Shown piece after piece: positions 3,984 through 64,000 of a stretch of 64,000 nt of DNA. Below the pieces are notes generated by a model. That model was given only the letters and a program-made list of their open reading frames with translations, ran no database searches and had not been told where the DNA came from. Where the stretch lies: IMG/VR virus record IMGVR_UViG_3300029554_000010, positions 8,938-72,937 of that record. One strand, given 5' to 3'. Origin of the DNA: a virus. Position numbers and translations under genes: made by a program. How positions within the stretch are numbered: the stretch's first letter is position 1; every line of letters begins with the position of its first letter.

Positions 3984-4145
3984 ATGACAGGTGATAGACG
4001 AGAAGCGTTTAGAAAAATGGTAGAACGTTTTAATAATCTGCCAGAGAAAAAGCAAGATCAAATGCTCTGGTATGGAAAAGCAATCATTGATATAGAGGAA
4101 AGCGAATCCAGTAAAAAAGAACCTGCAACAGTAAAAAGTGATTAA
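3984..4145 (+). CDS. small early protein, Cro-like by position
   Basis: first gene transcribed rightward from the operator region; RBS AAAGGAG; small basic protein. Confidence 0.4.
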   Translation: MTGDRREAFRKMVERFNNLPEKKQDQMLWYGKAIIDIEESESSKKEPATVKSD

Positions 4146-4152
4146 GAAAGGA

Positions 4153-4971
4153 GTGATAAGCACGAACCAGTTAGTACATATTGGAAATTCAGACATTTCC
4201 ATAAAAGAGTATAACGGTCAGCGAGTTGTAACGTTCAAAGATATTGACATGGTACACGGTAGACCAGACGGAACAGCAAGCAGAAATTTTAGAACCAACA
4301 GAGAGCGTTTCATAGAGGGTGAAGATTTCTTCCGAGTAAGCGCCGACGAAATTCGTCGCACCAAAATTTTTGACATTCCAGACAAGGCAACTTCTGATTA
4401 CGCCCTTATGACAGAACAAGGATATCTGATGTTAGTAAAGTCTTTTACAGACAATTTAGCATGGGATGTTCAGAGACAGCTTGTGAATGGATATTTCAAA
4501 ACCAGAGAAAAAGTAAAAAGGGCATTATCACCAGAACTTCAAATGTTGCAGGGACTACTTTCACAAATGGTAGAGAAAGAACTTGCTGATAAAGAAAGAG
4601 ACCGGCAGATTTTGCTTGCCAAAGAAACAGCAGATAAAGCTGTTGCGACTACAGAGAATATCAAAGAAGCAGTTAAACCGGTGTTCGATAACTGGCGTTC
4701 AGAAATCAATTTGAAATTCAATCGCATACAAAAATGTGCAGGAGCAGAGTTCAGAATGCTGAGAACAGAAATGTATCAAGAATTGGAACGCAGAGCAGGA
4801 TGTGATTTGAGTACTAGGCTGAGGAACAAACGCAACCGTATGCAAGAAAAAGGGTGTACGAAGACAACGATTAATGCACTCAATAAAATGGATATCATTG
4901 ACGATGATAAAAAGTTGCGTGAGATTTTCTCAAAGATCGTAACTGAATACGAAATTAAATATTGTGCGTAG
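4153..4971 (+). CDS. phage antirepressor, ORF6N / KilA-C type
   Basis: N-terminal region TNQLVHIGNSDISIKEYNGQRVVTFKDIDMVHGRPDG...NFRTNRERFIEGEDFF resembles the ORF6N domain; GTG start after an RBS (an alternative start is 4138). Confidence 0.65.
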   Translation: MISTNQLVHIGNSDISIKEYNGQRVVTFKDIDMVHGRPDGTASRNFRTNRERFIEGEDFFRVSADEIRRTKIFDIPDKATSDYALMTEQGYLMLVKSFTDNLAWDVQRQLVNGYFKTREKVKRALSPELQMLQGLLSQMVEKELADKERDRQILLAKETADKAVATTENIKEAVKPVFDNWRSEINLKFNRIQKCAGAEFRMLRTEMYQELERRAGCDLSTRLRNKRNRMQEKGCTKTTINALNKMDIIDDDKKLREIFSKIVTEYEIKYCA

Positions 4972-8061: not shown

Positions 8062-10034
8062 AAACAGTAGAATTGAAACAGCTTAACATTGAAAACTACA
8101 AGAAGTTTGAGTCTGCGGAGTATCAGTTTGCACCACGAACGATGGTGTCCGGTAGGAACCGTCAGGGTAAAACAACGTTGATGGACGCATATTTTGATAC
8201 ACTGACCGGAAAGCTTGCAGACGGTACATCTCCGAATAATGTCAGAAGAAAAGAAGACGGAGAAGAAGTTGAGGGTGTCGTATCAAGAGAACTCACACTT
8301 CTGATTGATGGAGAGGAAACCGTGATCCGTAAGGAAACGAAGAAAGGTAAATCTTCCAGTACCACAAAATATCAGGTTGATGGGTTTGATTACAACCAGA
8401 CGAAGTATAAGGAATTTTTAAAAGGAATATCAGACTCAGAAACCATTATGATGTGTAGTAATGCCAGAGTATTCCTTAATGAACTTCGAAAATCAACAGC
8501 AAGTGCCAGAGTAATGCTTGAAAAGATGGCAGGGTTCAATGCGGATAAAGTATTACAGGACAATCCAGAAGTTTCGGAAATCATCAAGAATCATTCTGTC
8601 GAGGAAGTTGTGAAAAAACTCAATAGAGACAAAAAAGACTTCCAGAAGAAAATTGATGCCAAAAAGGTTGAAATTGATACCGTAAAGAAACAGGGAACAC
8701 CAGATTTTACCATTCTTGAAGAAAAGAAGAATGCCGTGCTGGATAAACTGAATGGTCTTCTTGAAAAAGAAAAGCTGCTAAATGAAACCAATAAAGCATA
8801 TGACGAGCTCTGCTACGAGATTACAGGTCTCAAGAAATCCAGAGATGCGATCATTTCAAATGCAGCAGAAGCATTACAGGAAGAAAAGAGAAAAATCGTT
8901 TCCTTATTAAGTGACAGGCGATTCAAGCAGAAACATGAAGAAGAAAATCTCCGAATTCTGGGAAATTTCCTTGCGACCGCTGAGAAACCAGAACGAATTC
9001 AGCAGAGAATTACGGTTTTGCAGGAGAAATATAAACAGACGTATGCGTCCACATTTGATGAAACAGCTTTAAATGCAATACAGAATGAAAAATTTGATCC
9101 TGAATCAGCTATTTGCCCGACCTGCGGACAGGCACTTCCGGAGGAACAGGTTGAACGTCTTAAAACTGAATTTGAACAGAAGAAACAGGAAAGAATCCAT
9201 GCAGAGTTTGCGAAAAAAGAGCAGTTTAAAGCAGACAAACAGCAGAAACTTAAAGACATTACAGAAGAAGGCAATTCCGAAGTAGCCAGAAGAAAAGAAG
9301 TTGAGGAAAAGCGCAAAGACATCGAATCGCAGATTGAGCAGACAAAGAAAAATATTTCCACTCTGGCATCTGAGATTGCGCAGAAAAATCAGGAATTAGA
9401 GAAGCTTCCGGCAGAGCCAGATATGTCTGGAAATGAAGAGTATCAGGCAGTTGTAGCAGAAATCCAGAAGAAACAGGAACAGCTTGACGGACTGACTAAT
9501 AATTCTGAGGAAAATGCAGCAGTTCAGGCAGAAAGAATGTCTGCTGAAAAGGAACTTACAGGAATCGAAATAAAAATTGAGATGGCAAAACAGGCAGTTC
9601 AGAAACAGACAGAAACACTTGAACAGCTGAACACAGAACAGAAAGAGTTAGGTCAGGAAGATTCCGATATTCAGCAGAAACTTGACATGTTGAAAGAATT
9701 TTCCATCAAAAAAAATCAGGCACTGGCAGAAGCTATCAATCCACTTTTCAAGCATTTTCAGTTTCAGTTTTTGGACTATACGCAGGACGGTGAACCGGTG
9801 GAAGTTTGCAAGATGATTTGTGACGGAATCGGATATTTTGATGGATTGAATCACTCTGATCAGATTCTATGCAATATTGACCTCGTGACTGGATTGCAGG
9901 AGCTGAACGGACTGAATCTTCCAATTTGGGTTGACGATGCGGAATCCGTGAATGAAGAACGATTCCCAAAGATGGAACAGCAGGTTATTTACTTGAAAGT
10001 ATCTGACAATGAGTTGACAGTGGGGGGATTTTAA
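8058..10034 (+). CDS. SbcC/Rad50/RecN-like ATPase with a long coiled coil and CxxC hook
   Basis: N-terminal Walker A GRNRQGKTT; extensive E/K/Q-rich coiled coil; CPTCGQALPEEQ zinc-hook-like motif; C-terminal Walker B-like IWVDDAES. Confidence 0.75.
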   Translation: MKTVELKQLNIENYKKFESAEYQFAPRTMVSGRNRQGKTTLMDAYFDTLTGKLADGTSPNNVRRKEDGEEVEGVVSRELTLLIDGEETVIRKETKKGKSSSTTKYQVDGFDYNQTKYKEFLKGISDSETIMMCSNARVFLNELRKSTASARVMLEKMAGFNADKVLQDNPEVSEIIKNHSVEEVVKKLNRDKKDFQKKIDAKKVEIDTVKKQGTPDFTILEEKKNAVLDKLNGLLEKEKLLNETNKAYDELCYEITGLKKSRDAIISNAAEALQEEKRKIVSLLSDRRFKQKHEEENLRILGNFLATAEKPERIQQRITVLQEKYKQTYASTFDETALNAIQNEKFDPESAICPTCGQALPEEQVERLKTEFEQKKQERIHAEFAKKEQFKADKQQKLKDITEEGNSEVARRKEVEEKRKDIESQIEQTKKNISTLASEIAQKNQELEKLPAEPDMSGNEEYQAVVAEIQKKQEQLDGLTNNSEENAAVQAERMSAEKELTGIEIKIEMAKQAVQKQTETLEQLNTEQKELGQEDSDIQQKLDMLKEFSIKKNQALAEAINPLFKHFQFQFLDYTQDGEPVEVCKMICDGIGYFDGLNHSDQILCNIDLVTGLQELNGLNLPIWVDDAESVNEERFPKMEQQVIYLKVSDNELTVGGF

Positions 10035-10035
10035 C

Positions 10036-10266
10036 ATGACATACAATATTCCAGAAGCTATCAAGGCACAGGAAAAGTTCTGTGATAAGAACGAATATCC
10101 GTGTTTTGCACCGGATGATGGTATCTGTTGGGATTGCCACCAGAACATCTATTCCGAAAATGGAATAACCAGATACGGTAGAAAAACACATGGTATTTCG
10201 GCGGAAAGTGCCGGAAATCATCTGATTACAGGATGCCCGTTTTGCAGTAGAAGCTATTGTGATTAA
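10036..10266 (+). CDS. small Cys-rich protein (CxxC, CWDCH and CPFC motifs)
   Basis: multiple Cys pairs in 76 aa; translationally coupled to the ATPase gene. Confidence 0.45.
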   Translation: MTYNIPEAIKAQEKFCDKNEYPCFAPDDGICWDCHQNIYSENGITRYGRKTHGISAESAGNHLITGCPFCSRSYCD

Positions 10267-10617
10267 TTGATAAAAGTGAACTGCAATAGATTGGCTGGGC
10301 GGTGAAGCGTAGCGCGGCGCAGGGCAATGGAAGAGCAGAGAACAGAATTGCTATGGAACTGTTTAGAAGAGCCGAGAACAGCGAAGGAATAGTACAGATG
10401 TGAGTAGCAAAGAAACGCGGGGGAAATGAAATGCAGTGAGAGGCCCGGTAAGGCGAAGCATTGGAAAAGCATTGGAAAGCAGAGCATTGGAAGAGCTGGG
10501 ATAAGTGAAGTGATGGAGAAGTGCTGACAGGCAACGTAGAGCATAGGCAAAGTGGAGTGGCGAGAGGTCATGCAGTCTGATGTAAAACAATAATTCATAA
10601 AAAGGAGAAAAATTGAG
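10267..10617 (+). repeat. purine-rich (G+A) non-coding spacer with internal short repeats (GCATTGGAA x3, GGCGAAGC)
   Basis: about 350 bp with almost no pyrimidine runs on the plus strand; no plausible ORF; words GCGAAGCGTAG, CAGAATTGCT and ATAGGCAAAG recur at 11215-11340. Confidence 0.5.
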
Positions 10618-32694: not shown

Positions 32695-32913
32695 TGTTTT
32701 TTACCTTTGCCCCTGCTATAATGGGGCTACCTTTCATTTTTTTGTTGGGTGCCGGTTGTTTGTCTTGGTAGGATTGCAACCGGCTTTTTTATTTAGTCAT
32801 CCGCGAACTAGAATTTTTCAATTAATCGGATCCGGTATCTTATGTTTGAGTGGTTCAGGCGGTCCGGTTGTTTGTTTCTTGTGTTCCCTTCGTTGATATT
32901 ATAATACTACATA

Positions 32914-38579: not shown

Positions 38580-38873
38580 AAATATGCTTTTAGCATTTCC
38601 AATGCAGATTATCCTGTTCATTATCGAAGAACGGGTTAATCATATAAGCAATGCGAAAGGATACGCTTGTCCCGTAGTGAAGCGGTACGCAAGCAAACGA
38701 TCGAGACATCCGATTTAGCAAACATGACTCTACAAAAAAGAGAACAACTTAGTTATTTAAATGCTGAATTCTCCACATAAGTTGTGTTGCAATTGTAGAG
38801 CACATAATAAAAATATTATCACACACTCAATTCTTTCTCCTGCTTTTGTAATGGTGCGGAGTGGGAGAAAGAT

Positions 38874-38948
38874 TCTAGGGCTATCGCCAAAAGGTAAGGT
38901 AACGGACTTTGATTCCGTCATGTGTGGGTTCGAATCCCACTAGCCCAG
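38874..38948 (+). tRNA. tRNA-like, anticodon TTG (Gln), with an atypical D-arm
   Basis: perfect anticodon stem ACGGA/TCCGT with loop CTTTGAT, T-arm GTGGG-TTCGAAT-CCCAC, acceptor AGGGCTA/TAGCCCA with an A-A pair at 1:72. Confidence 0.35.
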
Positions 38949-39182
38949 CTTGCTAGGTTGCGCATGTACCTGGCAATGGTTTATTTTACATAGACCCTCC
39001 GACGAAAACCCATCTAGCTCAACGGAGCTGATTAAAGGGGCTTCAAATGTCCCGGATGGGAATCATCGTAAAAACGATGTACTCTATTTAGCCATGACCT
39101 TTGTTGCGGCTGGTGGCAAAGAACCGCAACAGTAGAAGCAAATCAACTCAAAATCTGCAATCCGGGAGACTGCTTCTACTCA

Positions 39183-39255
39183 GGAAATTTAGTTCAGCGG
39201 TTAGAACGCCCGGCTCATAACCGGGAAGCCCTGAGTTCGAATCTCAGAATTTCCA
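39183..39255 (+). tRNA. tRNA-Met (CAT anticodon; elongator Met or Ile2-lysidine type)
   Basis: acceptor GGAAATT/AATTTCC, D-arm GTTC-AGCGGTTA-GAAC, anticodon arm CCCGG-CTCATAA-CCGGG, T-arm CTGAG-TTCGAAT-CTCAG; 3' CCA not encoded. Confidence 0.7.
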
Positions 39256-39786
39256 TTTCTTCCGTATGCTACCCATCCGTTTTATGGGCAGAAAAAACTT
39301 TCGGATGAGCGTATGTGAATCAGAATGAGCAAAGGTATGTAACGGCATAGGCTTGTGCTTGATCTGATTTCCCGTCCGATAAATGTTTCTTAGTTTCAAT
39401 AAGCCATCACAAGCGCGCATTGATGGCAGGGAGTTTTCAAGAAGCATAAAGTTAAAAGGCATAATAATATCCGAAACAACTCCGTGGAGCATACCACGGT
39501 TACCAAAAAGCCGTCAGGTTGGCAAAAATACGATAGTCCAAGTTATGAAAAATTGCCTAGTGGAAAGCATAACACGAAAAAATCATTGCTAACCCGGAAC
39601 AATCTCCGGGTTCTGGGGGAATAATACCATAAGGGGCAGAGGGCTGATTAACAGTACCAGAGCGGTTCAACTCCGCATTCTCCCATTATCCAATCTGTAA
39701 ATATTGGATATGAGGAAGCTGTCCGAGATGTAAGAAACAGTCGGCTTGTGGATTGCCGGTACAAATACGCTGAAAATCCACACAAG

Positions 39787-39856
39787 GCAGGGTAGAGAAG
39801 CGGAATCTCGCAAGGTTCATATCCTTGAGAACGGCGGTTCAAATCCGTCTCCTGCA
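39787..39856 (+). tRNA. tRNA-like, anticodon CAT, with an imperfect acceptor stem
   Basis: D-arm GAGA-AGCGGAA-TCTC, anticodon arm CAAGG-TTCATAT-CCTTG, T-arm GGCGG-TTCAAAT-CCGTC; mismatch at the top of the acceptor stem. Confidence 0.35.
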
Positions 39857-39974
39857 ATTAATTTGGTCGGAATTATGCTGTCTGTATACAGGCGGTCTAT
39901 GATTCGGCTGAATTTATCTCATGAGAAAAGGTTATTGCTTATCCTGTTGTCTGGTGTCCGGACCGAAAAGCATG

Positions 39975-40047
39975 ATGGAATGTAGATCAGTGGTAGAGCA
40001 ATGGCCTTGTAAGCTATGTGTCGCAGGTTCGATTCCTGCCTTTCCGA
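39975..40047 (+). tRNA. tRNA-like with a TGT anticodon loop and T-arm GCAGG-TTCGATT-CCTGC; acceptor stem not resolvable by eye
   Basis: D-arm-like GATCAGTGGTAGAGC, anticodon arm ATGGC-CTTGTAA-GCTAT. Confidence 0.25.
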
Positions 40048-40388
40048 TTCCATATAGTGGCGGAATACGTAGACGCTATTGTGGTAGCATAGGTTTGAAC
40101 CCACAACTTAGGTGACCTTAGCCGGCGGCATGAGAGTAAAAGGGTGGAAATCCCCTCCTATATGGACGTTTGATGCATTGAGTGATAATGCTCTGATTGA
40201 AAAGTGGCGGAACTATTGACAGTGATGAATCTGATACAATAGAAAGGCAGACGCAGAGGATAGTACATCGTAATGGGGTGAGCATGTGTCTTTGGACATG
40301 GGATGTACATGGAAGTTCGAATCTTCCCTTTTCAACTCCTACGAATTGCCATCGTAGGAATAAATTACTCCTAAGGTATAGTTTGGTT

Positions 40389-40440
40389 TCCAGTACTCCA
40401 CGTTGGGTGGCTAGTTACGGTTCAAGTCCGTGTACTGGAA
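40389..40440 (+). ncRNA. armless tRNA-like mini-structure (acceptor, D-like and T-arms only) followed by a T-run
   Basis: perfect 7-bp acceptor TCCAGTA/TACTGGA, CCAC-GTTGG-GTGG hairpin, T-arm TACGG-TTCAAGT-CCGTG, then ATTTTTGTTT. Confidence 0.3.
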
Positions 40441-40462
40441 TTTTTGTTTAGAGAGGTGGATT

Positions 40463-40612
40463 ATGGAAGAAAAAGATTATTGTTGTACATGTAAATGGTA
40501 CGCGACATACGAAGGCGTTTGCTGTAATGGTGACAGTGAAAATTGCGCAGATTTTAGATGTCTTGATGATAGCTGTGAATGTTGGGAGGGAGTAAAGAAT
40601 GAAAATTCATGA
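40463..40612 (+). CDS. small Cys-rich protein
   Basis: CCTCKWY...CCNGDSENCADFRCLDDSCECW. Confidence 0.4.
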   Translation: MEEKDYCCTCKWYATYEGVCCNGDSENCADFRCLDDSCECWEGVKNENS

Positions 40613-44170: not shown

Positions 44171-45907
44171 ATGCAAAAATTCACAGAAGGCTCGCTTGAA
44201 TGGTATCGGGCAATTTTAAATCAAATCATTAATGATGATATGACAGTCTGTCAAAATCAGAAGGACTGCCTTGATTTACTTTTGAATATGAATATTGACC
44301 TTCCTTTCAAGGATAATCCAGATGCACGGAATATGGCAATGAAAGTCAGTCGGTACGCTCACAATGAAGCTGCGAAACAGGCAGCAGTTACAGGAAGTGG
44401 TTCATTTGACGATTTATACTGGCAGTATTTATTGATGGAAGCACAGAACTATCAGGTTGACAGTGGGCTTCTTTACCTTGAAAAGAACCGAATCCCGAAA
44501 GAACGATTCTATGAACCACGAAGAAATGTGTTCTTACAACATAACATCATAGGTTCACTACAAGACCTGATGGATGACAAATTAGATATATTTGCATTAA
44601 GCGTACCTCCGGGTTGTGGAAAGAGTACTCTGGAAGATTTCTTTTTATCATTGGTAGGTGGATGGTTCCCGAATGACTTTAACCTGTCTTCGGCACACAG
44701 TAGCATTCTGACACGTTCCCTTTATGATGGTGTTCTGGAAATTATCAATGATCCCGTGGAATACACGTGGCATGAGATATTCCCTAACATAGAAATTCAA
44801 GGAACAAATGCAAAGGAAACTACAGTCAATCTCGAAAGAAACGGACGATTTAAGACATGGACATTTCGTTCTATTGATGGTTCTTTGACTGGCGCCACTA
44901 GATGCAATAGATTTCTTACTGCCGATGACCTTGTGTCTGGCATTGAAGAAGCTTTGAATAAAAACCGACTTGATACCTTATGGACAAAAGTGGTAAATGA
45001 CTTGCGTTCCCGTAGACTTGAGGGATGCAAAGAGTTTTATATTGCCACCAGATGGTCAGTACATGACCCTATCGGAAAACTGCAACAACTATATGCCGGA
45101 AACCCACGGGCAAGATTTATTGCAGTGCCGGCTCTTGATGAGAACGGCAAAAGTAATTTCCTATTTACGGTAAATGGATTCTCAGAGAAATATTTCAATG
45201 ATGCTAAAGAATCCATGGATGAAATTTCTTACAACTGTCTTTATCAGCAACAGCCGGTAGAACGTGAGGGATTATTATTACCACCGGATAAATTAAAACG
45301 ATTCTTTTTCAGTAAAGAAGACGTGCCGGATGAATGCGTGGATGAATACATCATCATTCCAGATAAAGATGCAGATGCAATATGGGCGGTATGTGATACA
45401 AAAGATAAAGGAACCGACTTCGAATCATTACCGATTGCATACCAATACGGAGATAAATTTTTCTTTCCTGATGTGGTGTTTGATGACACTACAGACTATG
45501 ACATTTTGGATAGAAAGACAGCAGATATTTTGATAAGACATAACCCACATAAGATTCGTTTTGAATCAAATAATGTCGGAAACCGCGTGGCACACAATAT
45601 CCAGAAAATGATTACTGGAAAGTGCCGAGCTGAAATTGAGACAAAACCAACATCAGCAAATAAAGAAACAAAGATTCTTGTAAATTCGGACTATATAGCA
45701 AAACATTTTTATTTTCTGCATCCAAGTCAGTACAAAGCAAAGTCTGATTACGGATTATTTATGGCTAACGTAACTACGTACACCACTAGGGCAAAAGTAC
45801 CACATGATGACGGAATCGATTCTTTGGCTATGATGGCTGAGTACGTACAAAATCCATTAGGTGGTAAAGCAACGGCAATGCAGAATCCATTTTGGGGAAG
45901 GAGATAG
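44171..45907 (+). CDS. terL: terminase large subunit
   Basis: Walker A LSVPPGCGKST, ATPase and nuclease-like halves; sits upstream of the portal gene. Confidence 0.8.
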   Translation: MQKFTEGSLEWYRAILNQIINDDMTVCQNQKDCLDLLLNMNIDLPFKDNPDARNMAMKVSRYAHNEAAKQAAVTGSGSFDDLYWQYLLMEAQNYQVDSGLLYLEKNRIPKERFYEPRRNVFLQHNIIGSLQDLMDDKLDIFALSVPPGCGKSTLEDFFLSLVGGWFPNDFNLSSAHSSILTRSLYDGVLEIINDPVEYTWHEIFPNIEIQGTNAKETTVNLERNGRFKTWTFRSIDGSLTGATRCNRFLTADDLVSGIEEALNKNRLDTLWTKVVNDLRSRRLEGCKEFYIATRWSVHDPIGKLQQLYAGNPRARFIAVPALDENGKSNFLFTVNGFSEKYFNDAKESMDEISYNCLYQQQPVEREGLLLPPDKLKRFFFSKEDVPDECVDEYIIIPDKDADAIWAVCDTKDKGTDFESLPIAYQYGDKFFFPDVVFDDTTDYDILDRKTADILIRHNPHKIRFESNNVGNRVAHNIQKMITGKCRAEIETKPTSANKETKILVNSDYIAKHFYFLHPSQYKAKSDYGLFMANVTTYTTRAKVPHDDGIDSLAMMAEYVQNPLGGKATAMQNPFWGRR

Positions 45908-63870: not shown

Positions 63871-64000
63871 TTTGGTAAAACCAACAGGCTAACCCGACGG
63901 GGGACAAGTGCAATTCCATGATGCACCTGCCTGTTGTTTTTATAAATCATGGATCTGTGGCTACAAGGCAGTCACACATTAACGACATGGAGGTTATCTA

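Follow-up and report, generated by a model that had tools for sequence, protein, structure and literature searches.

The transfer RNA (tRNA) array of an uncultured human-gut phage ends in a tRNA-like RNA module that combines an acceptor-like stem with a T-arm, carries a short junction in the place of the anticodon arm, is followed directly by a U-tract and may serve to punctuate the transcript. The window, by which we mean the whole stretch of DNA analyzed, comprises 64,000 nucleotides (nt) and corresponds to positions 8,938 to 72,937 of the IMG/VR virus record IMGVR_UViG_3300029554_000010. Within it, the array is made up of four ordinary tRNAs without an encoded CCA end and four structured RNAs, among them the terminal module, which keep an acceptor/T-arm minihelix but are non-decoding.

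Fold and conservation of the terminal module

The module and its tail occupy the following positions:
40389-40439 (+): terminal tRNA-like module (family model, 86.9 bits; covariation; RNAalifold)
40441-40445 (+): U-tract right after the closing stem of the module (columns 56-58 invariant in alignment A3, see below)

The outer stem consists of a U-A pair and a 7-bp acceptor-like stem (40390-40396 with 40432-40438), giving 8-9 bp with the flanking U-A pairs. It encloses a single U, a stem CCAC/GUGG with the loop GUUGG, the junction CUAGUU and a T-arm, ACGG-UUCAAGU-CCGU, which abuts the 3' acceptor strand as in a tRNA and is followed by an A at the discriminator position. The topology is that of a three-way junction in which 5-6 junction nucleotides occupy the place of the anticodon arm, and the folding energy amounts to about -20 kcal/mol. 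An earlier note on this DNA had described the last element of the array as a perfect 7-bp stem and T-arm without an anticodon arm, followed by a T-run, and this description is correct for 40389-40445. Between 4 and 7 U follow the stem across instances, with at least four U among the first 8 nt in 207 of 207.

The sampling of relatives, which covers one phage group and mostly one large virome data set, proceeded from the module itself. Its exact 49-nt core was present in 42 viral contigs. BLAST comparison with these loci gave a recurrent start of homology at 40384 and an end at 40444 in seven loci, and since the homology blocks begin and stop at the module edges, the module is a discrete block in a mosaic array. 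Scans in which stems or loops were freed in turn, together with one metagenome scan, provided approximately 140 first loci. Here, every single-site stem change gave a G.U pair on the plus strand, and one pair changed from U-A to C-G. As these loci had been retrieved via the module, its near-invariance among them is partly by construction. The arrays were therefore re-sampled through an unrelated anchor, the junction at 39009-39060 (element 2, described below), and later through the invariant positions only. The window-type module sequence was found in only one of the 95 new loci obtained with element 2; most of them carried divergent homologs in the same place, with different stems and identical loops.

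The resulting alignment A3 contains 36 distinct sequences, in which 99.5% of the cells are paired, compared to 85% in shuffles and 26-51% in slid registers. Compensatory double changes were found at 9 of 16 pairs (103 cells), a value that was reached by none of 500 shuffles, and the interior stems account for compensated positions at five of their eight pairs. RNAalifold returned the identical three-way junction for A3, and a scan with free stems, fixed only at the invariant positions, delivered 241 instances in 31 cores, all of them paired. The family falls into three stem types (A, B, and C); with only three major types, many of the compensatory cells descend from few events. The family is invariant in both loops, GUUGG and UUCAAGU, and in the G-C pair that closes UUCAAGU; the lone U behind the first stem, the U-A pair and the two C-G pairs with which this stem opens, and the U-tract do not vary either. 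Those that resemble a tRNA are the UUCAAGU T-loop with its G-C closing pair, the GG of the other loop and the post-acceptor U. Rare loop variants did not covary when the complementarity of UUGG and UCAA was checked as a D-loop/T-loop contact. Among the single-sided changes in A3, approximately 23 cells show G.U on the plus strand compared to one C.A (author's count), and this asymmetry points to an RNA made from the plus strand rather than a DNA site. This family with strong covariation and invariant loops agrees with one option of the earlier note, which had named tRNA-mimic RNAs, including processing signals, as a possibility for the cluster.

The family model, like all covariance and family models built here, yields only rough E-values. 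It finds one copy per locus and exactly one in the window, and it also picks up plain hairpins with a U-tract, namely at window position 32748-32791 and in the post-tRNA hairpins described below. With the same model, no homolog was detected in the distant relatives L146 and L147. No copy of the module, whole or split, was found in 185,579 representative bacterial genomes, and none of the four non-tRNA elements of the array matches an Rfam 15 family.

Position at the end of the array

The module is always the last array element: for all 207 instances, the 1.5 kb downstream of it are free of called tRNAs. On the upstream side, approximately 80% have a called tRNA that ends 46-69 nt before the module; in the rest, including the window, an aberrant element occupies the last-tRNA slot before the module. 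The next open reading frame (ORF) starts 22-27 nt past the module stem in about 186 instances (approximately 90%). It usually encodes a small Cys-rich protein, with a different gene or none in at least 25 instances, and the identity of the upstream tRNA varies widely as well. Since both neighbors vary, the module goes with the array end and not with either of them. Promoter-like sites downstream of the module did not exceed chance frequency when searched with the sigma-70 consensus, which may not fit the host group.

A distant GenBank relative of 84.7 kb, MT835477 (L288), ends its array at 4000-4042 with the outer stem of the module, UUCCGGUGG/CCACUGGAA, and a U-rich tail. Inside the stem, this version has a plain A/U loop of 17 nt and forms a hairpin only. 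That stem and tail are kept around a plain loop indicates that the stem and the U-tract are the functional base of the element. In addition, two independent metagenome contigs (L095 and L132) stop within the module at an identical base (...GUACUGG), which most likely reflects assembly graphs breaking at a conserved block flanked by variable sequence.

Ordinary tRNAs and T-arm motifs

Four ordinary tRNAs were called in the array, none of which encodes a CCA end:
38877-38949 (+): tRNA-Gln(UUG), ordinary, no encoded CCA (ARAGORN; Rfam tRNA, 57.6 bits)
39183-39255 (+): tRNA-Met(CAU), ordinary, no encoded CCA (ARAGORN; Rfam tRNA, 74 bits)
39786-39857 (+): CAU tRNA, second Met or Ile2-type, ordinary cloverleaf with a mismatched pair 1-72 (ARAGORN; Rfam, 49.9 bits)
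39976-40047 (+): tRNA-Thr(UGU), on a scaffold with differing anticodon arms among relatives (ARAGORN; Rfam tRNA, 55.4 bits)

The seven GTTCRANT T-loop motifs that had drawn attention to this region are real and lie on the plus strand at 38928, 39235, 39665, 39837, 40027, 40315, and 40420; the coordinates reported for them earlier were those of the T-arm starts, a few bases 5' of the motifs. Over the whole window, the number of such motifs is at chance level (25 found, 23.8 expected). Their clustering is extreme, with seven of the 12 plus-strand matches located within 1.5 kb, i.e., 2.3% of the window (binomial estimate of approximately 3e-9). When a T-stem was also required in a geometry scan, eight of the nine plus-strand T-arm-like hairpins of the 64 kb fell into the array, and T-arm hairpins with a matching acceptor stem were restricted to it. 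An eighth T-arm-like site at 39042, missed before, is part of the junction 39009-39060.

The claim that only one clean cloverleaf is present does not hold, as ARAGORN at default settings and the Rfam tRNA model (50-74 bits; curated cut-off of RF00005, 29 bits) both call the four tRNAs listed. Nor do the other elements all have perfect anticodon arms, a statement that fails for three of the non-tRNA elements. Most of the members regarded as non-canonical are thus ordinary tRNAs, and the rest are structured non-tRNAs. For 39009-39060, 39615-39685, 40240-40335, and 40389-40439, neither ARAGORN at default nor Rfam at the gathering threshold gave a tRNA call. A permissive Rfam scan at E <= 10 gave no tRNA match for the module, element 2, and 39615-39685 either, and only 15.8 bits for 40299-40335. 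ARAGORN reports the three non-tRNA T-arm sites solely at 70-90% of its normal thresholds, with forced structures. A transfer-messenger RNA (tmRNA) was not found by ARAGORN at default, and the sole Rfam tmRNA match (8.4 bits) was a T-arm fragment elsewhere. Tag-like tmRNA predictions arose at relaxed ARAGORN thresholds only; a permuted tmRNA, predicted at -ps80 and -ps90, had no Rfam support and was rejected.

Further non-tRNA elements

Besides the terminal module, three structured elements of the array are not tRNAs:
39009-39060 (+): element 2, anticodon-arm-less three-way junction (acceptor and T-arm geometry scan)
39615-39685 (+): tRNA-Tyr-derived element (column-for-column alignment with the tRNA-Tyr(GUA) of relatives)
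40240-40335 (+): aberrant 96-nt tRNA-like element (ARAGORN only at -ps90, anticodon undefined; Rfam tRNA, 15.8 bits)

None of the four non-tRNA elements forms a four-arm cloverleaf with an anticodon arm of 5 bp and 7 nt; in 40240-40335, an over-long arm bears a loop of 8 nt. A 7-bp acceptor stacked on a UUCRANY T-arm with a G-C closing pair is present in the module and the Tyr derivative, and in 40240-40335 with an imperfect acceptor. Element 2 shares the acceptor and T-arm geometry only, as its T-arm-like hairpin is closed by C-G and has variable loop positions 1-2. The two outcomes that the earlier note had named as speaking against its proposal did not occur: not all elements are ordinary tRNAs, and the non-tRNA elements are structurally conserved. 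Its three options of unusual tRNAs, decayed tRNAs, and tRNA mimics all occur, each in different elements.

Element 2 is located between tRNA-Gln and tRNA-Met in approximately 180 loci and is more widespread than the terminal module. Its 7-bp closing stem CCCAUCU/GGAUGGG encloses the hairpin AGCUC-AACG-GAGCU, a 7-nt junction GAUUAAA and the hairpin GGGGC-UUCAAAU-GUCCC. In alignment A5, 98.4% of the cells are paired and seven of 17 pairs show compensatory changes; the loci had been pre-filtered for pairing with a regular expression, and an unfiltered spacer alignment gave the same substitutions. RNAalifold produced the same fold, and the element folds alone with z = -3.7. Conserved are the junction GAYUAAA and the loops AACG and CAAA. 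Because the second loop is not a T-loop across the family, element 2 is less tRNA-like than the window copy suggests.

What the Tyr derivative retains is the acceptor stem of 8 bp (GGGGGAAU/AUUCUCCC) and a T-arm of 4 bp. Its long variable arm is deleted and its anticodon loop is reduced to GAUUAAC without U33. It shares the flanking hairpins with the tRNA-Tyr(GUA) of relatives, from which its T-stem differs by one compensatory pair, and it occurs nearly identically in approximately 27 loci. The term decayed tRNA suits this element as far as its destroyed core is concerned, but not its maintained acceptor/T minihelix. A suppressor tRNA at 39617-39685 ('tRNA-Stop(tta)', ARAGORN -ps80) was rejected, given the missing U33 and the broken D and anticodon stems; the element arose from tRNA-Tyr by deletion, and the standard code suffices to read the long ORFs of the window.

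The element at 40240-40335 occupies the last-tRNA slot of relatives and is carried by approximately 29 loci. An imperfect acceptor, UAGAAAG/CUUUUCA, is combined with a perfect 7-bp stem, GUACAUC/GAUGUAC, which encloses a CAUGU-(8 nt)-ACAUG hairpin and is followed by the T-arm GGAAG-UUCGAAU-CUUCC. Its T-stem carries a double compensatory change in the relative L080, and pairing is also kept where an acceptor G.U becomes A-U and an inner hairpin C-G becomes U.G. A frameshift-type tRNA with an 8-nt loop at 40257-40336 is not supported in view of the imperfect acceptor, the lack of a D-arm, and the low Rfam score of 15.8 bits. Both 39615-39685 and 40240-40335 retain their acceptor and T-arms through compensatory changes with broken cores; owing to their low diversity, selection on both is weakly tested.

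A different armless tRNA-like element was noticed in L147, a Ca. Scybalousia metagenome-assembled genome (MAG) with a portal protein 67% identical to that of the window phage. It lies at approximately 4153-4193 between tRNA-Ser and tRNA-Gln, reads UAGACAG-(11 nt)-CAAGG-UUCGAUU-CCUUG-UCUGUCUA, and comprises an acceptor and a T-arm with no other arm.

Spacer hairpins and mosaic joints

Three hairpins in the spacers were characterized:
39103-39130 (+): Gln-Met spacer hairpin GUUGCGG...CCGCAAC (covarying stem, conserved across lineages)
39131-39180 (+): leader hairpin AGUAGAAGCA...UGCUUCUACU with a 10-bp stem (folding; ends 2 nt before tRNA-Met)
40337-40359 (+): post-tRNA hairpin, an 8-bp stem around the 7-nt loop AUUGCCA (forms in all contexts folded)

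The stem of the Gln-Met spacer hairpin occurs in the variants UUGCGA/UCGCAA, UUACGG/CCGUAA, UUGCAG/CUGCAA, and UUGUGG/CCACAA. By eye, its 5' flank CUUUG (from 39098) could pair with the loop sequence CAAAG as a candidate H-type pseudoknot. The leader hairpin had been recognized before, with a start one base off, and it covaries in relatives, where the outer stem is kept by compensatory changes (AGCAGAGG/CCUCUGCU and GUGCCAAG/CUUGGUAU). The hairpins at 38840-38873, 39131-39180, 39593-39613, and approximately 39740-39783 all end with their 3' strand 2-4 nt before the 5' end of a tRNA or tRNA-like element. Every such element is preceded by a hairpin of this kind, and the stems covary between lineages. 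These pre-tRNA hairpins could be involved in processing or insulation, or could be recombination joints.

Across loci, a hairpin of 7-9 bp always lies between the last tRNA and the module. Its loop, A-N-U-G-C-M-A, is conserved while the stem covaries (CCAGUGA/UCACUGG, CCAAUGA/UCAUUGG, CCUACGA/UCGUAGG, CCGGUAA/UUACCGG, and CUGGCAA/UUGCCAG). In types A and C, this stem starts with UUCCAGU or UUCCGGU, the same as the outer stem of the module. The post-tRNA hairpin may be a module copy with a deleted interior or a partner site. A riboswitch-like alternative pairing between the two was dismissed, as four types folded as two independent domains.

A direct repeat, AGTGGCGGAA, at 40056-40065 and 40203-40212 flanks a 147-nt block that is absent from the relative L051, in which the sequence after the second repeat follows tRNA-Thr directly. 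This arrangement suggests that cassettes are gained and lost by recombination at short post-tRNA repeats.

Variation in the arrays of relatives

The scaffold of the last tRNA, YGGAAUGUAGCUCAGUGGUAGAGCA...CGCAGGUUCGAUUCCUGCCWUUCCGA, carries differing anticodon arms among relatives, as seen from a comparison of window 39976-40047 with L004, L154, L157, L164, L166, L169, L195, L201, and others. The anticodons found are Thr(UGU), Ile(UAU), Ala(UGC), Cys(GCA), Cys(ACA), Met(CAU), and Val(UAC), and 6-nt loops also occur, for which ARAGORN returns '???(ac)' or '???(aa)'. A second scaffold occurs in versions whose anticodon is CCA (Trp), UCA (opal suppressor), or UGA. The pattern resembles swapping or rapid diversification of anticodon arms, possibly under pressure from anticodon-arm nucleases.

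One related array, that of L013, contains a full-length ROOL RNA (9925-10481; RF03087, 378 bits), which immediately precedes tRNA-Ser(UGA) and lies about 230 nt upstream of the terminal module. In the window, Rfam gave no match to ROOL or GOLLD, and among the relatives ROOL was found in L013 only. Seven relatives contain Rfam tRNA matches of 114-121 nt (46-48 bits) that ARAGORN does not call:
L001 1570-1690; L003 11133-11246 (-); L009 6645-6759 (-); L020 2996-3110 (-): long Rfam tRNA matches
L032 3765-3879; L035 5469-5583; L044 1095-1208: long Rfam tRNA matches, continued

These are tRNAs with an insertion of approximately 45 nt in the anticodon/variable region, exemplified by GGCAAGG...CCUUGCC in L237.

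Phage and genomic context

The source of the array is an uncultured siphophage of human-gut Clostridia with a genome of roughly 80 kb, whose host probably belongs to the Lachnospiraceae or Oscillospirales. Two serine recombinases, a terminase, an SPP1-type portal, and a major capsid protein are encoded in the window. Terminase, portal, and capsid genes lie 3' of the array and both recombinase genes lie 5' of it, 3.8 and 11 kb from the terminal module. All array relatives are human-gut viral contigs, typically of 75-83 kb, and the earlier suggestion of a phage tRNA cluster is thereby confirmed. No close cultured relative was found, the nearest being Clostridium phage Maintenon with 41% terminase identity; the other matches are unannotated human-faecal virome contigs, and remoter portal relatives occur in Lachnospiraceae and Ca. 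Scybalousia MAGs.

The array region (38720-40460, plus strand) is free of long ORFs and has short plus-strand ORFs on both sides. From 40463 up to the terminase at 44171, plus-strand ORFs are tightly packed, and the long ORFs of the window read normally with the standard code. The packed series begins with the following gene:
40463-40612 (+): first ORF after the module, 49-aa Cys-rich protein (translation; start codon 24 nt past the module stem)

This ORF, MEEKDYCCTCKWYATYEGVCCNGDSENCADFRCLDDSCECWEGVKNENS, is conserved and lies directly 3' of the module in most relatives. A PHROGs search of the genes flanking the array was uninformative, with no match for the Cys-rich ORF. Near the window end, at 63882-63952 (+), an int-alpA RNA motif was detected (RF02996, 52 bits), which is unrelated to the tRNA array.

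Possible functions of the terminal module

We tentatively favor a reading of the module as a tRNA-mimicking punctuation and terminator element that would mark the boundary between array and message, and we give it slightly less than an even chance. It takes up the observed structures with their conservation and fixed positions, the CCA-less tRNAs, and the packed downstream genes, which have no recognizable promoter. The array would be transcribed within a long plus-strand transcript, and the module would fold during transcription. Its closing stem and U-tract could then pause or partly terminate transcription at the array end, and its tRNA-like shape could attract the same host enzymes by which the CCA-less tRNAs upstream are matured. 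Cleavage by RNase P on the 5' side of the module and by RNase Z after the discriminator-like A would detach the array from the downstream messenger RNA (mRNA). With the ribosome-binding site (RBS) and start codon of the next gene only about 10-25 nt past the module, there is no room for a promoter of its own. A mini-tRNA of approximately 50 nt, possibly CCA-tagged, would be released as a by-product or for a second function. The elements at 39009-39060, 39615-39685, and 40240-40335 might punctuate the array internally in a similar manner, and a genuine tRNA gene was the origin of at least one of them. The individual steps have precedents: RNase Z of Firmicutes is specific for CCA-less precursors and, where these have a long leader, acts after RNase P (PMC1874595); mRNA ends are generated where t-elements, which are tRNA-like but non-canonical, guide cleavage by RNase P and RNase Z (PMC1920247); and a tRNA-like Y RNA module with a 7-bp acceptor stem undergoes RNase P cleavage and CCA tagging (PMC4201824).

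Several points weigh against this proposal. Transcription of the module, its ends, cleavage, and termination are all deduced from sequence. A simple terminator scanner did not call the module, since the structure is branched, and a promoter inside or just before it may have escaped detection if the host promoters deviate from the sigma-70 consensus. The loops are invariant across stem types, which plain processing or termination would not need and which argues for an additional specific partner. The GG loop has only 5 nt and one G is changed in three loci, which makes the analogy to the tRNA elbow tentative. Furthermore, the module stem starts with two C-G pairs instead of the usual G1-C72, the array of MT835477 ends without a tRNA-like interior, and the sampling is narrow, as stated above.

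The invariant loops lead to a second reading, possible if on the unlikely side, in which the module acts in trans as a stable mini-tRNA of approximately 50 nt that binds or titrates a host factor recognizing tRNA. Candidate targets would be a defense nuclease or toxin docking to acceptor and elbow, a modification enzyme, the CCA-adding enzyme, or the ribosome; without an anticodon arm, the mimic would be immune to nucleases that cut there. Every stem covaries, yet neither of the loops varies, nor do the junction-proximal U and the first two acceptor pairs; this constraint exceeds the needs of a processing site or terminator. The neighboring last-tRNA scaffold is hypervariable in the anticodon arm, the signature expected under pressure from anticodon-arm nucleases. 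Such nucleases exist, including one that targets tRNA-Thr(UGU) (PMC12445682, PMC10264068), and tRNA-mimicking Y RNAs are modified and processed like tRNA (PMC4201824). Nevertheless, a plain hairpin replaces the module in MT835477, and the occurrence of the module exclusively at the array 3' end, always before a U-tract and an ORF, favors a role in cis. Both roles can coexist. Unlikely, in our estimate, is the more specific scenario of an amputated tRNA of approximately 50 nt, matured by RNase P, RNase Z, and the CCA enzyme, that would serve as a trans decoy or inhibitor against immunity systems or toxins docking to the tRNA body, alongside a neighboring tRNA that escapes nucleases through a swapped anticodon arm.

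If the cis role were that of a plain intrinsic terminator of the tRNA operon, the tRNA-like interior would be baggage from a former tRNA. The stem of 8-9 bp followed by 4-7 U in all instances, the family model matching ordinary hairpin and U-tract sites (32748-32791 and the post-tRNA hairpins), and the same stem around a plain loop in MT835477 all fit. Baggage would decay, yet the interior stems are compensated at five of eight pairs and the loops are invariant in three stem types; moreover, a full stop would cut off the packed genes that start 24 nt further on without a detectable promoter, so that we consider this quite unlikely. A cis-regulatory leader of the downstream ORF, controlling ribosome access or sensing a tRNA-binding factor, would account for an RBS and start codon 10-25 nt past the stem in approximately 90% of the instances, mostly before the same Cys-rich ORF. 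It seems improbable given the at least 25 instances in which this gene is different or absent with the module and its upstream context unchanged, the lack of overlap between module and RBS, and the failure of folding to reveal an alternative pairing. Decaying tRNA pseudogenes or chance hairpins without function are a very improbable description of the non-canonical elements as a whole. The element at 39615-39685 demonstrably derives from tRNA-Tyr by loss of the variable arm and anticodon loop, and the low diversity of this element and of 40240-40335 leaves room for such a description there. For the module and element 2, however, it is already refuted by strong covariation and invariant loops, the T-stems of the other two are kept through compensatory changes, and in the 64 kb the combination of a T-arm hairpin and a matching acceptor stem is confined to the array. 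Finally, we hardly expect the module to be a DNA site, be it for recombination or attachment, for packaging, or for protein binding to inverted repeats at a mosaic joint. The homology between relatives breaks exactly at its edges, two metagenome contigs end inside it, and two serine recombinases are encoded upstream. A size of about 50 bp with terminal inverted repeats resembles the attP sites of serine integrases. The module fits in size and outer inverted repeat, and no copy, whole or split, was found in the 185,579 representative genomes. It is built from three nested helices instead of one dyad, its single-sided changes (almost all G.U on the plus strand, approximately 23 versus one) can be explained only at the RNA level, no recombinase gene lies closer than 3.8 kb, and assembly breaks are expected anyway at a conserved block amid variable sequence.

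Should the punctuation reading prove true, bacterial viruses would share with plant mitochondria and some eukaryotic transcripts the trick of using tRNA mimics as cut marks for host tRNA enzymes, and the presence of tRNAs within a late operon would be accounted for. A role in trans would introduce a new RNA-level player into the conflict between phage and defense over tRNA, and the amputated-tRNA decoy would represent a new class of RNA-based anti-defense factors. In the usual annotation, a phage tRNA array is a list of tRNAs separated by 'junk'. In the present array, at least two RNA families that are supported by covariation and missing from Rfam, as well as two tRNA-derived elements, reside in the spacers and at the array end. 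The models can serve the annotation of elements overlooked by tRNA finders or wrongly reported as suppressor or 'undetermined' tRNAs, and they tie armless elements to the still unexplained tRNA islands that bear ROOL.

Comparison with known systems

Modules resembling tRNAs within longer transcripts are known from the mascRNA of MALAT1 and MEN-beta and from the vtRNAs of murine gammaherpesvirus 68, where cuts by RNase P and/or RNase Z set functional RNAs apart and the released product is CCA-tagged and non-decoding. These are eukaryotic nuclear or Pol III transcripts that keep a (reduced) anticodon arm, and there is no sequence relationship to the phage module. Phage T4 encodes within its tRNA cluster the species 1 and species 2 RNAs, small stable non-tRNA RNAs of 120-140 nt that are co-transcribed with the tRNAs in a proteobacterial host and matured by the tRNA-processing machinery; to our knowledge, their function has still not been established. 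They differ from the module in that their sequence is unrelated, they are not anticodon-arm-less junctions, and they have no fixed position at the array end. With an intrinsic terminator, the module has in common a stable stem that runs directly into a U-tract where a stable-RNA operon ends. It departs from the simple hairpin with a loop of 3-8 nt, as its stem closes a three-way junction of 35 nt with inner arms under selection and invariant loops, and as the downstream genes apparently depend on read-through.

Closest in kind are the t-elements of plant mitochondria (Forner et al. 2007, PMC1920247), which, like the module, have a non-canonical tRNA-like fold with a conserved T-arm motif and an acceptor-like stem and are embedded in polycistronic transcripts beside real tRNAs and mRNAs. 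Provided that the array is transcribed as assumed, the module is likewise such a fold within a longer transcript. Cutting of t-elements by RNase P and RNase Z has been proposed and partly demonstrated to make the 5' or 3' ends of mRNAs, and an excised t-element can be a stable RNA that receives non-encoded C residues (PMC1920247); for the phage module, cutting is our proposal. Unlike the module, t-elements are organellar and heterogeneous relics, without a family of invariant loops, a U-tract, or a tie to the end of a tRNA array. In the module of the YrlA Y RNA (Chen et al. 2014, PMC4201824), acceptor-like, D-like, and T-arm elements mimic the tRNA body with the place of the anticodon taken otherwise, and some copies of this type are phage-encoded (PMC4201824). 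Y RNAs, however, have a helix that binds Ro60 and adjoin the rsr gene, whereas the phage module of approximately 51 nt has no second helix domain and ends in a U-tract. Neither at the gathering threshold nor at E <= 10 did Rfam give a Y RNA match, and a Ro60 gene did not show up in the window, although no dedicated search for one was made. ROOL and GOLLD (PMC12286853; RF03087) share with the module the setting in tRNA islands of phages and prophages, but they are large (about 580-800 nt) and cage-forming in comparison with its 51 nt. In the full-text literature searched, we came across no report of tRNA-like RNAs without an anticodon arm from phage tRNA arrays, which does not prove that none exists. 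As a kind of element, a tRNA mimic that serves as a processing mark, or a tRNA-like module, is already known; what is new is the module family, together with its constant location at the close of phage tRNA arrays and the U-tract fused to it.

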